NCBI GenBank assembly: GCA_031372065.1
Contig: JANMKN010000104.1
Location: 1 to 17,463, forward strand
Reading direction: 5' to 3'
Source of the DNA: Abditibacteriaceae bacterium
GTDB lineage: Bacteria > Armatimonadota > Abditibacteriia > Abditibacteriales > Abditibacteriaceae
DNA length: 17,463 nucleotides
Shown here: positions 598 through 11,366 of the stretch, in pieces
Position numbering within the stretch: the first letter of the stretch is position 1
How the letters are laid out: each line of letters opens with the position of its first letter
Notes under the pieces: model-generated
Told to the model about the DNA's origin: nothing
The model's database searches: none
Seen by the model: the letters and a program-made list of their open reading frames with translations, nothing else
Position numbers and translations under genes: made by a program

Positions 598-639
598 GTG
601 CGCGTGTCTTGGCCGCGCAATTAGTCGGAATCGCGGCAG

Positions 640-765
640 TTGGGAGACTAATCTCAGCATTTGGGAGACTAATCGCGCCAGTTGGGAGACTAATCTCAGC
701 ATTTGGGAGACTAATCTCGGCAGTTGGAGGGCTAATCGTGGCAGTTGGAGGACTAATCGCCGCGC
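640..765. repeat. Tandem array, 6 x 21 bp (consensus TTGGGAGACTAATCTCRGCAK)
   Basis: Units start at 640, 661, 682, 703, 724 and 745, with a partial unit at 629-639. Units 1, 3 and 4 carry a GAGA-CTAA-TCTC mini-palindrome. Confidence 0.95.
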
Positions 766-7881: not shown

Positions 7882-9210
7882 TCACTCCACCGTCATCGGC
7901 GTTTCATGGGGCGATTGGCCGTTGGGGTCGTTGATTTGCGCGCCGCGCGGGGCCGCAACCGGGCCGCGTAGCAGCGGGTCGGCGGTGGCTTCCATCCAAT
8001 TTTCAAGACGCCAGCGCATATCGGCTAAGGCGTTTGCGGCTTCGCGTTTAGACGCTAAATTGTTGTTTTCTTGCGGGTCGAACCACAAATCATAAAGCTG
8101 TTCGTCGGCAATGGCGCGCTCGGCCCAGTCGCGTTCGAGCAACCATTTTTTCGTCGGGCTATCGTCGCAATTGGGCAAGGCGATTTTGCCGCGTTCATCG
8201 AAGCGGCGAATGTATTTCCAGCGCGGCGTTCGCACGCCACGCTGCGGCTCATAGGCGGCGTGATACGTCACTTCGGCGAAAATCGCATCGTTCACTTCAC
8301 GCGCCGCGCCGTTGATAACCGGCAGTAAACTTTGGCCTTGCAGCCACTTTGGTTTTTCGATGCCGAGAAGGTCGCAAATCGTCGGAAAAATATCAATTTG
8401 CGACACCAAAGCGTCGCAAATTTGGCCTTTTGGCAGTTTGGGGCCGCGCATTATCAGCAAAACGCCGATGCCGCGATCTGTGAGGTGACATTTCATGCCG
8501 GGAAAGGCGATGCCGTGATCGGTGGTGCAAACAATCAAAGTGTTTTCCACCAGCCGGTTGCGTTCGAGCGCCTCCAAAATGAGGCCGTATTTGGCATCTA
8601 AAATCTTGGCGGATTCCGCGTAATCGGCGAAATCGGCGCGCGTGATTTCGTTGTCCGGCAAGTGCGGCGGCACGGTGACATATTTGCCGTCGCCCTTTTG
8701 CACCACAACGCCATTTTCTCGGTTGAAATGCGCGCCAAAACGGTGCGTTTCGTTGAATCCGGCATCGAGAAAAAAAGGCTGCCGGGCACCCTCTGGGTGG
8801 GATTTGCTATTCAAAAACTCCACCGCGTTATTTTCGGTGCCGTTTTTGGCATCGCAAAGCAGGTCGTAGCCGAGTTTTTTCACGTCCTCTCCCGCCGCGA
8901 CGTGTTGCACACCAGCCAGCACGCAATGATAACCGGCGCCGTGCAAAGTGGAGGCAAGATGCTGCGACTGATCGTGCAAAGCAAAGCCGCGATGCGCCAG
9001 TCCAATCATGCCCGCGCTATGCGGCGCTTGCCCGGTGAGCAGCGCGGCGCGACTGGGCGAACAAGTCGGCGCGGCGCAAAACGCTTGGCGAAAAAGCAGT
9101 CCCTCTGCGGCCAATTTTTGCAGGTTTAGTGTGTTCAGCGCATGGCCGTAAGGCGAAATATAACGGCCTGTATCGTGCGAGTGCAGATAAACGATATTGG
9201 GTTGGGGCAT
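7882..9210 (-). CDS. Cys-type S1 sulfatase, N-sulfoglucosamine sulfohydrolase-like
   Basis: PNIVYLHSHD, CSPSRAALLTG, TTDHG and QLYDLWFDPQENNNLA motifs. No signal peptide. Confidence 0.93.
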   Translation of the reverse strand: MPQPNIVYLHSHDTGRYISPYGHALNTLNLQKLAAEGLLFRQAFCAAPTCSPSRAALLTGQAPHSAGMIGLAHRGFALHDQSQHLASTLHGAGYHCVLAGVQHVAAGEDVKKLGYDLLCDAKNGTENNAVEFLNSKSHPEGARQPFFLDAGFNETHRFGAHFNRENGVVVQKGDGKYVTVPPHLPDNEITRADFADYAESAKILDAKYGLILEALERNRLVENTLIVCTTDHGIAFPGMKCHLTDRGIGVLLIMRGPKLPKGQICDALVSQIDIFPTICDLLGIEKPKWLQGQSLLPVINGAAREVNDAIFAEVTYHAAYEPQRGVRTPRWKYIRRFDERGKIALPNCDDSPTKKWLLERDWAERAIADEQLYDLWFDPQENNNLASKREAANALADMRWRLENWMEATADPLLRGPVAAPRGAQINDPNGQSPHETPMTVE

Positions 9211-9226
9211 GATTTGATTTTATAGC

Positions 9227-9261
9227 AAAAAACGCCGCGTGCCTTTTGGCGCGGCGTTTTT
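9227..9261 (-). terminator. Intrinsic terminator, possibly bidirectional
   Basis: AAAAAACGCCGCG...CGCGGCGTTTTT GC-rich stem flanked by A and T runs, about 30 bp past the stop at 9294. Confidence 0.8.
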
Positions 9262-9293
9262 CCTTTTGTGGGCAGGTGGGGTTCTGCGATGTA

Positions 9294-9992
9294 TTACGGC
9301 GTCGGCGTGTCCGTTTGGTGGCTTTGCGCGGGGCGAATAATGGATTGATCGAAGTAAACCGCTGCTTTGCTGATGTCGCCGACGTTTTGGGCGGCGAGGA
9401 GCAGCAAATTCTTCATCAATTGCTTTTCCAGCGCGGTTTTGGAGGTTTTGGTGTCACTTTGGCCGCTCGACACAGCGCCTTTTTTGCCCAGTTGCGCGGC
9501 GCGGGCCGTCCTAAAGGCTTGGCGCAGGGCGAAAAACTCGTCGTAAAAGGCTTGTCCCAGTTCCGTGCTGCCTTTGTGCGCGTCGGCTGCGGCCACGAAT
9601 TGATTCATCAAACGCTCGGCCTCGCTCAAATCGGCGCTGCCATATTCGTCCACGCCGTGCGGGAAAAATTCCTGATGCTCCGCCGATTCTTTGCCCCAGA
9701 GGTCGCGAATGCGTCCTTCGCGACGCGAAACGCGGGCGAAAAAGGCGTCCATCGTGTTGTTGACACTAATTGTGAGGCCCTGACGCACGGCAGCGGCAGT
9801 ATCGGTGTCGGTGATGTCGCCGAAAAAGTCGGTGTAGCGCGTGGTAGTGTCGAGCAGCATCTCGTCCAACGCGCCGCCGGTGTTATTCTCCGCCAGACGC
9901 CGCAAGTGGTCTTCGGTGAACGTTTTCAGTTCGTCGTTGCTGATCTGCTTGTCATCGAAGTTGTTCTCAAAATACGTTTGCAGATTCATCAT
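9294..9992 (-). CDS. Hypothetical, probably all-alpha-helical protein (232 aa) adjacent to a repeat array
   Basis: GGAGAGG RBS 6 nt before ATG 9992. No Cys, signal peptide or TM segment. Motif-like stretches FENNFDD, DHLRRL, EFFPHG, KNLLLL and YFDQS. Confidence 0.85.
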   Translation of the reverse strand: MMNLQTYFENNFDDKQISNDELKTFTEDHLRRLAENNTGGALDEMLLDTTTRYTDFFGDITDTDTAAAVRQGLTISVNNTMDAFFARVSRREGRIRDLWGKESAEHQEFFPHGVDEYGSADLSEAERLMNQFVAAADAHKGSTELGQAFYDEFFALRQAFRTARAAQLGKKGAVSSGQSDTKTSKTALEKQLMKNLLLLAAQNVGDISKAAVYFDQSIIRPAQSHQTDTPTP

Positions 9993-10033
9993 AAAAATCC
10001 TCTCCTTTTTCTCAATCGTTGCTGGCAATTCTT

Positions 10034-10063
10034 AATATAGCGCAATATTACCAACTTTGGTAA
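10034..10063 (-). promoter_or_regulatory. Candidate sigma70 promoter for the 9294-9992 gene
   Basis: -10 TATATT (10039->10034) and weak -35 TTACCA (10063->10058) with an 18-bp spacer. The -35 lies inside array unit 1. Confidence 0.4.
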
Positions 10064-10298
10064 TGGCCCCCCACCTGTCGGGAGTGGCATTACCAAAGTT
10101 GATAATGCTCCCCCCGACTTCCCAAGTGGCATTACCAAAGTTGGTAATGCTCCCCCGGACTTCCGTAGCCCAATTACCAAAGTTGGTAATGCTCCCCCGG
10201 ACTTCCGCAGCCGCATTACCAACTTTGATAATGCTCCTCCCGACTTCCCAAATGGCATTACCAACTTTGGTAATGCCCCACCGGAGTTTTTCGGGCAA
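10047..10298. repeat. Tandem palindromic array, 6 x 42 bp
   Basis: ATTACCAA starts at 10047, 10089, 10131, 10173, 10215 and 10257. Conserved core (GC)ATTACCAA-[CT/AG]-TTGRTAATG(C), followed by a more variable CCCCCSGACTTCC-N half. Confidence 0.97.
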
Positions 10299-10304
10299 AA
10301 TGTG

Positions 10305-11321
10305 TCATTTTACACGCCAAAGTTGGACGTAGCCGGAGAAATTACCAACAGCCAGAGTGCAACTGTTGGGAGAGAAAGCCAGTGTGTTGAACCCACCGAG
10401 CCTACCCTGTATAAAGCGAAGACGTTGGCCGCTATTGACATCCCACAATTCAACATTTGTGAGGCCTGTGCTGTTTGGCGTGCTAATAGTCGCCAAAAGA
10501 GAGCCGTCGGGCGAGAGGCAGGATTCGACAAAGCTACCCTTAATAACTCGCTTCCGCTGTTCCTTTTGATAGTCCCAGATTTCTCTATTCCCATTCTCTC
10601 CAAGCAAGCAGATTCCGTTAGATGCCGCATTCATGTAACTGAGATTCGCCATTCCTTTTACGAAATGGCCTTGCAATGTTTGTATGTTCCAAGACTGAAC
10701 GCTTGGGATAATTTCGTCACTATTCTTCCAAGAAATCTCACTAACCAAAACAGTTTTGCTATCTGGCATGAAATCTAAACTATAAAAATTGCCTAAGGCT
10801 GGCGTCGGCAATGGCAATTTGATTATTTTCGTGTCGCCTGTTTTGGTATCCCAAAGAATGATGTCACCTTTTTTATTTTGGGCAGCCAGTGTTTTGTCAT
10901 CGGGCCAAGTAGCACTGAATCGTGGATGAAGATTAGAGGCAGAATGCTGTTTCAAAGGTTGCAACTCAGGAAAAGATAAAACGCGGGCTTGATAGTCATG
11001 GGGTTTGTGCCTAATTCGTTTAAAAACTGCCACACGGTTGCCACGCTCCAAAAAATGCACGACTTCCGCTTCTTTTATGGTATTTACGACACGCCTTGTC
11101 GCTACATCACATACCATCACTGGAGCAAATGAATAATAATCGGTGACCAGCAAATAGCGACCATCTGGCGAGAATTTCAAATCACCGGGCCTGAAGTTCA
11201 TAGGTCCGTCATCAGGCAATTGAATCGTCCTTGGCCGCCACGAATTGTAATAGACAAGATAAGAACCAAGCGCCAACGGCACAAGGAGTAACAGCGCGAG
11301 TTTGAAAAAGCGGCGTTTCAT
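10305..11321 (-). CDS. WD40/beta-propeller repeat protein with an N-terminal membrane anchor or signal
   Basis: FSPDGRYLLV, ILWDTKTG, LSPDGSLLA, VELWDVNSG and LAFSPNS...VQLWRV repeats. Start reassigned to ATG 11321 (MKRRFFKLALLLLV). Confidence 0.88.
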   Translation of the reverse strand: MKRRFFKLALLLLVPLALGSYLVYYNSWRPRTIQLPDDGPMNFRPGDLKFSPDGRYLLVTDYYSFAPVMVCDVATRRVVNTIKEAEVVHFLERGNRVAVFKRIRHKPHDYQARVLSFPELQPLKQHSASNLHPRFSATWPDDKTLAAQNKKGDIILWDTKTGDTKIIKLPLPTPALGNFYSLDFMPDSKTVLVSEISWKNSDEIIPSVQSWNIQTLQGHFVKGMANLSYMNAASNGICLLGENGNREIWDYQKEQRKRVIKGSFVESCLSPDGSLLATISTPNSTGLTNVELWDVNSGQRLRFIQGRLGGFNTLAFSPNSCTLAVGNFSGYVQLWRVK

Positions 11322-11366
11322 AACAAAGCGGGGCCGATGATAGCTTTTTGGCATCATCGGCCCCGC
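11322..11366 (-). terminator. Hairpin, probable terminator after the DUF1080 gene
   Basis: GCGGGGCCGATGAT/ATCATCGGCCCCGC 14-bp stem (11328-11366), followed by TTTGTT on the minus strand. Confidence 0.65.

Follow-up and report, generated by a model that had tools for sequence, protein, structure and literature searches.

Phased 42-bp palindromic arrays paired with genes for a predicted all-helical protein in an Abditibacteriaceae bacterium and at homologue loci

Several bacterial systems contain short repeats, either in tandem or dispersed through the genome, in some cases with a dedicated gene. In the type III toxin-antitoxin system ToxIN, as presented in the available part of its description (PMC3401426), about 5.5 tandem repeats are placed directly 5' of a small gene, and the distribution is patchy, with horizontal spread. 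The REP/BIME elements associated with RAYT are palindromic extragenic repeats, often located after gene ends and unevenly present among relatives, and a genome may hold several sequence families of them, each with a dedicated gene (PMC3733652, in the text accessible). BrickBuilt, a minisatellite-MITE from Porphyromonas gingivalis, is intergenic and dispersed and consists of gap-free tandem repeats of a 23-nt unit; it comprises one sequence family with a leader, a tail and terminal inverted repeats, and the portion of the account at hand describes no partner gene (PMC4596501). A further likeness is that to BldC-type cooperative filaments on DNA repeats, with which a presumed polymerisation along phased repeats and control of a promoter would be shared (PMC5859096, partial text). 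Heptamer repeats constitute a different class, of 7 bp, according to the section available (PMC4679880).

The locus described here, which also holds a tandem array upstream of a gene, lies in a 17,463-nt stretch of DNA from an Abditibacteriaceae bacterium (the window). Read along the minus strand, it presents a WD40 beta-propeller gene (10305..11357), a phased array (10288-10047), a short spacer with a ribosome-binding site, an ORF for a 232-aa protein (9992-9294), a terminator-like stem-loop (9261-9228) and a sulfatase gene (7882..9210); the WD40 and sulfatase genes, both on the minus strand, are outside the cassette. The original prediction held that the array fills the gap after the WD40 stop and that the gene has a ribosome-binding site, and both points are corroborated: the stop, at 10305, is separated from the array by 17 bp, and the motif AAGGAGAGG (9999..10007, minus strand), read from the sequence, is located just 5' of the ORF. 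The gene had also been credited with its own terminator. The stem-loop is indeed present, with A/T runs on both sides, and closes the cassette (9228..9261, no strand assigned), although terminator-like matches of this kind are frequent by chance (three found, 2.5 expected). A terminator-like site also follows the stop codon in 20/71 homologues.

The array (10047..10288, no strand assigned) comprises six 42-bp units, each with a long dyad, ATTACCAA-nn-TTGGTAAT, and a short dyad of the CGGA-CT-TCCG type, the centres of which are 21 bp apart. Because the second palindrome is centred 21 bp from the first, the array can be described as twelve 21-nt elements of alternating orientation. The six long palindromes (ATTACCAA-nn-TTG(G/A)TAAT) start at 10047, 10089, 10131, 10173, 10215 and 10257, and a G-to-A change within them is found in units 2 and 5. 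The exact 42-bp period that had been claimed is confirmed by direct reading, by TRF (period 42, 5.6 copies, 81% matches) and by autocorrelation, with a self-identity of 0.81 at lag 42 and 0.37 at lag 21, compared with a best identity at any lag of 0.41 in 1000 base shuffles. Each unit had been divided into a conserved palindrome and a variable half, of which only the former stands, as the other half holds its own shorter dyad 21 bp away. Likewise, the flanking halves of the terminal units decay, as anticipated, but their palindromes are perfect. On the gene side of the array, a promoter-like site (TTACCA-18-TATATT; 10034..10063, minus strand) has its -35 inside the gene-proximal palindrome; it is a consensus match only, in a scan that found two such sites in the window versus 1.1 expected by chance. 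Open frames run across the array on both strands, one at 10032-10298, with hydrophobic residues at a/d-like positions, and another at 9989-10264, which ends on the ATG of the gene.

Further copies and variants of this array are few. In its own genome, the sequence has one further partial copy only, a near-identical piece at a contig edge (G000:C136:1-39, L156) followed by an unrelated ORF; this piece is probably an orphan sibling truncated by the assembly. In a related population (run X4, compared over 9332-10273), one contig carries an array with one additional unit of exactly 42 nt. A weak hint of a deletion form comes from a single contig of low depth, in which the array is fused to the gene's 3' end. 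A paralogue of the gene with 49% identity (G000:C216:5087-6039, L005) has its own 42-bp array and a terminator, a similar hairpin being located after it, and a gene-less copy of that array, 75% identical, is found at C281:40232-40469 (L155). The window itself contains a second array of the same class (629..760, no strand assigned), with a 21-bp period and 6.3 copies, which is unrelated in sequence and adjoins no family gene; no sibling of it was found in the assembly, and its open frames look like leucine heptads.

The claim that array and protein form one system was examined at 83 homologue loci, three from genomes and the best 80 of 87 from metagenomes, by the tandem-repeat scan of flanks that had been suggested together with it. 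Among the 64 loci whose upstream flank reached 350 bp or more, which served as the denominator, an upstream array was detected in 56 (period 42 in 54 and period 43 in two), versus 2/58 downstream flanks and 0/34 far-upstream flanks. Clustering of the proteins at 70% identity leaves the linkage at 31/37, and the pairing is present in relatives from many environments. The claim is thus upheld by the frequency of upstream arrays and by a 42-bp period that is fixed in the family, while 8/64 loci, as well as the homologue in genome G240, showed no array above threshold. In the own genome, where a family set of 77 genes was assembled, 64/71 assessable genes have an array against a background of 38/747, a rate that is partly circular because the set was seeded from array-adjacent genes, which is not the case for the homologue loci. 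The gene-linked arrays of this genome show a sense promoter-like site between array and gene in 23/52 cases (antisense in three; 4.6 expected), whereas the consensus scan found such sites distal to the array in 6/52. No terminator-like site was detected between array and gene, either in the window or in 52 homologue spacers.

The 232-aa protein is acidic (pI about 5.0; family median 5.1) and belongs to a family of 1224 representatives at 50% identity (E up to 0.001). Its description as a helical protein of unknown function was borne out by the structure prediction and Foldseek search that had been proposed: the AlphaFold2 model, obtained from a 67-sequence alignment, is all-helical with a pLDDT of 91, and Foldseek gave no match at E up to 0.001 against PDB and viral libraries. 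The predicted shape is a two-module rod, in which module 1 consists of a short (19-35), a long (43-99) and a tiny helix (104-109), and module 2 repeats this pattern (122-138, 146-202 and 207-213). For the window protein, the duplication is visible in the AlphaFold2 model only, hhalign having given none. A residue of the first long helix, T74, is nearly invariant, and R164, Q167, K178 and R185 are conserved with heptad spacing in the second one, where they would share one helix face. By standard rise values, a helix of 57 residues measures ~85 A, and 21 bp measure ~71 A.

Nothing above noise was found for the window protein in Pfam, NCBIfam, PHROGs, PADLOC or PDB sequences, and Pfam gave no match at E up to 1. 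The best fold-search scores corresponded to VIA (Z 9.3, 76 aligned residues) and to the ligand-binding domain of McpS (Z 9.1, rmsd 3.8, 189 aligned); both were rejected, as scores of this size are also reached by generic helical bundles. A likeness to DUF6261 (PF19775), put forward in the original prediction, found no support in Pfam. This family shares with the window protein a comparable size and an all-helical character, but PF19775 was not matched, with 0/67 family members among the matches listed, and a DUF6261-containing cluster listed as a weak Atlas neighbour (0.88) is a lead at most. Longer homologues do give Pfam matches, which correspond to C-terminal CarboxypepD_reg/Ig domains, and many family members carry a C-terminal Ig-like domain. 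In homologues P0019, P0039 and P0084, plus L137 and L138, CarboxypepD_reg or FN3 Ig-like domains occupy the C-terminus and the helical domain begins at residue 1. Such domains are odd cargo for a putative DNA binder.

Homologue arrays vary widely in sequence and have in common a loose TT/AA step pattern and two dyads kept exactly 21 bp apart, with the second dyad at the fixed +21 offset reaching a mean score of 0.58 versus about 0.25. In 41 non-redundant arrays used for covariation, partner bases 3-8 bp out from the centre of the main dyad are complementary at 0.80-0.90 versus 0.27-0.52 for shuffled partners, a comparison biased by the choice of this dyad for its symmetry. The second dyad, which was not chosen but placed at a fixed offset, shows 0.51-0.76 versus 0.28-0.47 at 2-6 bp out. 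The two central bases of the dyads are non-complementary (0.17). Similar proteins have similar arrays (Mantel p 0.002), a correlation confounded by kinship, which alone could produce it.

An unbiased autocorrelation scan of the own genome returned 293 non-genic repeats, with 129 at period 21, 85 at 42, 27 at 41, 24 at 63 and ten at 20, so that three groups of periods stand out (20/21, 41/42 and 61-63) and 31/32 is empty. After merging, 275 arrays in 124 sequence clusters were obtained, 37 of the arrays having period 20 or 41. Genes of about ten orphan families adjoin 59 of these arrays, and the remaining 216 have no family gene; copies with and without a gene coexist in 37/124 clusters. The possibility that the array occurs genome-wide independently of the gene, which had been set against the pairing, is therefore half realised: the class is mostly gene-less, yet the sequence of the window array has the single partial copy mentioned above. 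Among the orphans, 87 have a gene-linked sibling and 129 have none in the assembly, which is 94% complete. Of the 87 sibling orphans, nine share flanking sequence with the sibling, and only two keep a gene remnant. These two, which look like deletion derivatives, are G000:C233:477-1312, where the promoter is also kept, and C298:15678-16170, where only the 3' end is. Gene loss does not emerge as the main route to orphans, because 129 of them have no gene-linked sibling and so few siblings retain a remnant. The orphans are found in convergent (41/526), tandem (107/3121) and divergent gaps (19/541), and 77/107 are closer to 3' ends. Around 182 orphans, target-site duplications and terminal inverted repeats were in no excess over shuffled flank pairs, although old insertions could have lost them.

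Some other repeats of this genome merit mention. In two 21-bp arrays (G000:C118:20457-20604 and C94:16800-17021), the units reverse their orientation midway, giving one long palindrome. Two genes for divergent Y1-type (RAYT-like) transposases (G000:C343:2635-3704, L196, and C106:19948-21566, L197) adjoin an array or a cassette. A repeat with a 61-bp period and unique spacers (G000:C183:27584-27992) resembles a CRISPR array, and the genome is also rich in tandem repeats of 7 and 14 bp (39 and 37 TRF rows), which form a separate class.

The distribution of the family is patchy, with members in 2/301 genomes of the phylum, the own genome counted. No array of the class and no family gene were found in 780 kb (about 15% of the genome) of G002, which belongs to the same genus and whose flanking genes are 72-92% identical; all 13 syntenic orphan sites are empty there, 12 of them with a shorter gap. 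Either the lineage has been invaded or the relative has lost its arrays, invasion being the simpler reading. Regarding the window locus, the WD40 loci of relatives hold no array and no family gene, and in G001 and G003 the sulfatase orthologues are preceded by different genes and have no array either. Since synteny is broken in the genus relatives (G001-G003), no empty site is seen at this position. The proposal that the block is a self-contained insert is thus plausible, with the qualification that it is one of many such blocks in the genome. No conserved neighbour gene was seen at the homologue loci, in an analysis blurred by ORF calls over arrays, and gene calls in the own genome relied on a simple scorer of ORFs that overlooked the WD40 gene of the window. 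Several WD40 paralogues in G000 (on C184, C228, C116, C159, C292 and C94), together with the one at 10305-11357 of the window, adjoin an array or a whole cassette, and these genes may be a preferred landing context.

The grammar of the arrays tracks the protein family. Arrays were considered simple when identity at lag 21 was about equal to that at lag 42, and alternating when identity at lag 41/42 was far above that at lag 21; the labels F1-F10 were coined for the families in this analysis. Alternating arrays accompany the window family (2/2 in the own genome and 54/55 homologue arrays), F1L (9/9) and F7 (5/5). Simple 20/21-bp arrays accompany F1S (6/6), F2 (8/8), F3 (8/8), F4 (4/4), F5 (6/6) and F6 (4/4), while F8 and F9, with two arrays each, are simple or intermediate. 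F5 (for example, G000 L145:314-790), a family of about 160 aa, has the array downstream of the gene in 6/7 cases, unlike the other families. In the F1L/F1S superfamily, module doubling goes with repeat doubling, from 21 to 41/42 bp. F1L has a duplicated module plus FN3, its helical halves matching each other at 96% in hhalign, and F1S is the single-module form, with a 99.8% match to the C-terminal two thirds of F1L. In other genomes, F1L is accompanied by 41-bp arrays in 2/2 assessable cases of three, and F1S by 21-bp arrays in 3/6, the remaining three being without an array or with a gap. F7 is also duplicated (84%).

The AlphaFold2 model of F1L (helices 10-31, 38-91 and 96-101, then 114-130, 145-198 and 203-208, followed by FN3) shares with that of the window protein the twice-repeated short/long/tiny helix pattern, and in fold searches it matched FN3 domains only. 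F1L, F7 and the window family align weakly in register (hhalign E 0.001-0.009) and may be kin, judging from their sequences. That two modules give 42 bp is nevertheless no law, because F2 has a duplicated module (98%) and simple 20/21-bp arrays in 8/8 cases, an exception that a head-to-tail arrangement might reconcile. Moreover, F1L versus F1S is a single evolutionary contrast, and the contrasts in grammar represent few independent events.

According to these data, it is postulated, as the explanation considered probable on balance, that the predicted two-module rod binds its own array as double-stranded DNA and represses its own promoter, the array acting as the self-recognition device of a selfish element. 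One subunit would occupy each 21 bp, with polarity alternating along the array, in such a way that copies of module 1 would meet at one dyad and copies of module 2 at the other; from this like-with-like pairing, a 42-bp period of two dyads would follow. The filament would end on the promoter, the predicted -35 of which is in the last palindrome, and would in this manner limit the synthesis of the protein. Cassettes would be acquired by horizontal transfer, with insertion directly behind genes, and gene loss would leave at least some of the orphan arrays. The coated array would thus serve the recognition of the selfish element by itself and would not be a control element for the neighbouring sugar genes; this purpose is the weakest step of the explanation. 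We infer the binding, the oligomeric state and the repression. Coating of the double-stranded array by the protein is the simplest account because the helical phase is fixed, the dyads covary and the period tracks the number of modules, although the protein is acidic and has no known DNA-binding fold. A larger claim has also been formulated, in which the cassettes would be a large, fast-diversifying selfish class whose modular rod follows a ruler-like code (one module per half-site, so that doubling of the module doubles the repeat), with the array acting as a sponge that neutralises the protein and the orphans as an immunity library against incoming cassettes; this seems rather unlikely.

The phased DNA platform was one of two alternatives contained in the original prediction, and it is favoured by the promoter-like site after the array and by the lack of a terminator-like site between array and gene. 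The other one, an array transcribed into hairpin RNA to which the protein binds, either as in type III toxin-antitoxin systems or as a processed RNA array, finds no clear G-U bias in its favour and is regarded as improbable. The sense strand does fold very stably (z -11.1), the non-complementary central 2 nt of the dyads (0.17) are loop-like, in the window array both variant units become G-U when read on the sense strand, arrays in which G-U outnumbers A-C are 19 versus 10, and read-through from the WD40 gene is possible. However, palindromic arrays of any kind fold on both strands, G-U and A-C events stand at 127:107 (p 0.21), and greater stability of the sense strand is seen in only 24/41 arrays. 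In addition, the promoter-like site is downstream of the array, terminator-like sites separate array and gene in 0/52 cases, upstream neighbours are oriented either way, many sister families have direct 21-bp units with only weak symmetry, and there is no Rfam match. The layout also differs from that given for type III systems in the available text of PMC3401426, since here there is no terminator between repeats and gene, the promoter-like site, a consensus match, comes after the array and the dyads are phased with the helical turn; membership was rejected, as Pfam, NCBIfam and PADLOC gave no ToxN, CptN or TenpN match and the model is an all-helical rod. A coding role, in which the array would encode a heptad-repeat peptide (21 nt being seven codons) that pairs with the helical protein, is very improbable. 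The open frames spanning the window array on both strands, one with hydrophobic a/d-like positions, would fit it, as would the consensus units, which in two of the six frames are free of stops more often than under a null that preserves pairs (29/41 vs 22.8, p 0.018; 25/41 vs 15.7, p 0.001), but the matching sense frame is broken in 26/41 full arrays, variation is flat over codon positions (0.175/0.171/0.148), family-stable periods of 20, 41 and 43 occur, and no ribosome-binding site or fixed start was seen.

It might also be proposed that the free protein is harmful and that binding to its cognate array keeps it inactive, in a DNA-antitoxin addiction where orphans persist as immunity against incoming cassettes. 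Such a function would agree with each gene having its own array sequence, with a patchy distribution, with the number of orphans (216 vs 59 gene-linked arrays, 87 being siblings of the latter), and with two orphans and one run X4 contig that resemble gene deletions retaining the array. It is nonetheless an unlikely one, given that no toxin or defence family was matched, PADLOC yielding only weak partial hits to PDC-S06 (about 90/727 positions, best E 1.4e-5), that no conserved defence neighbours were seen at the homologue loci, and that 7/71 assessable in-genome family genes, apart from the 8/64 homologue loci, lack an array. A comparably doubtful proposal is that the arrays copy themselves round the genome like REP or MITE elements, with the helical protein as a dedicated mobilising or targeting factor. 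Several traits of those elements are present, such as gene-linked and orphan copies within 37/124 clusters, dispersed extragenic copies located mostly after coding regions (at the level of the class), empty sites in G002 (13/13), seven Y1-type transposases encoded by the genome, and a preference of orphans for convergent gaps (41/526) and 3' ends (77/107), even though the bias for convergent gaps is also expected from selection against insertions at promoters. Against it, no excess of TSD or TIR surrounds the 182 orphans, the families have no terminal tag in common, the protein matches neither a nuclease nor a transposase, and a search of viral contigs turned up no family locus. Compared with REP/RAYT, as far as the accessible text of PMC3733652 describes it, the partner here is no tyrosine transposase, the units are contiguous at an exact 21/42-bp phase and the array is on one side of the gene. 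Assignment to that system was rejected because the protein has no Y1_Tnp match, the seven Y1_Tnp genes of the genome sit elsewhere, and no GTAG or CGTC tag flanks the six palindromes of the window. Although similar in unit length, the arrays are also unlike BrickBuilt, as they fall into 124 sequence clusters with linked genes and show no TIR signal. A CRISPR array was discarded too, since the 'spacer' halves are palindromic and homologous to each other, with no Rfam match.

Coating of the array by the rod, the preferred reading, can be likened to a filament on phased repeats, as in plasmid centromeres such as sopC and parC. The window locus does show the phased repeats with dyad or direct symmetry of centromeres and operators, and its surroundings showed neither a partition ATPase nor a replicon. 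The proteins acting in BldC, sopC and parC have MerR-like, HTH or RHH folds, whereas the protein here is predicted to be a long rod of helices, to which Ig-like domains may be added at the C-terminus; searches for HTH, RHH or MerR-like domains gave no sequence match, and fold searches gave generic helical bundles only. No description of the array-gene pairing was found in the main texts of the literature searched, which included few subscription papers, and the array-protein class is apparently undescribed. Coating of the repeat by the modelled rod, if it occurs as predicted, would suggest a mode of protein-DNA recognition that is apparently undescribed.

The locus is a good test case, as it has a paralogue with a different array in its genome and, in addition, relatives with one module and 21-bp arrays or with two modules and 41/42-bp arrays. 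If binding is confirmed, the abundant 21/42-bp arrays, the open frames of which can pass for small genes, would be explained, and the family would provide a fold for reading DNA that differs from HTH, RHH and zinc fingers. Its many natural protein-site pairs (1224 representatives, plus about ten more families in one genome) would then allow a recognition code to be derived, and orthogonal pairs could serve as tools.
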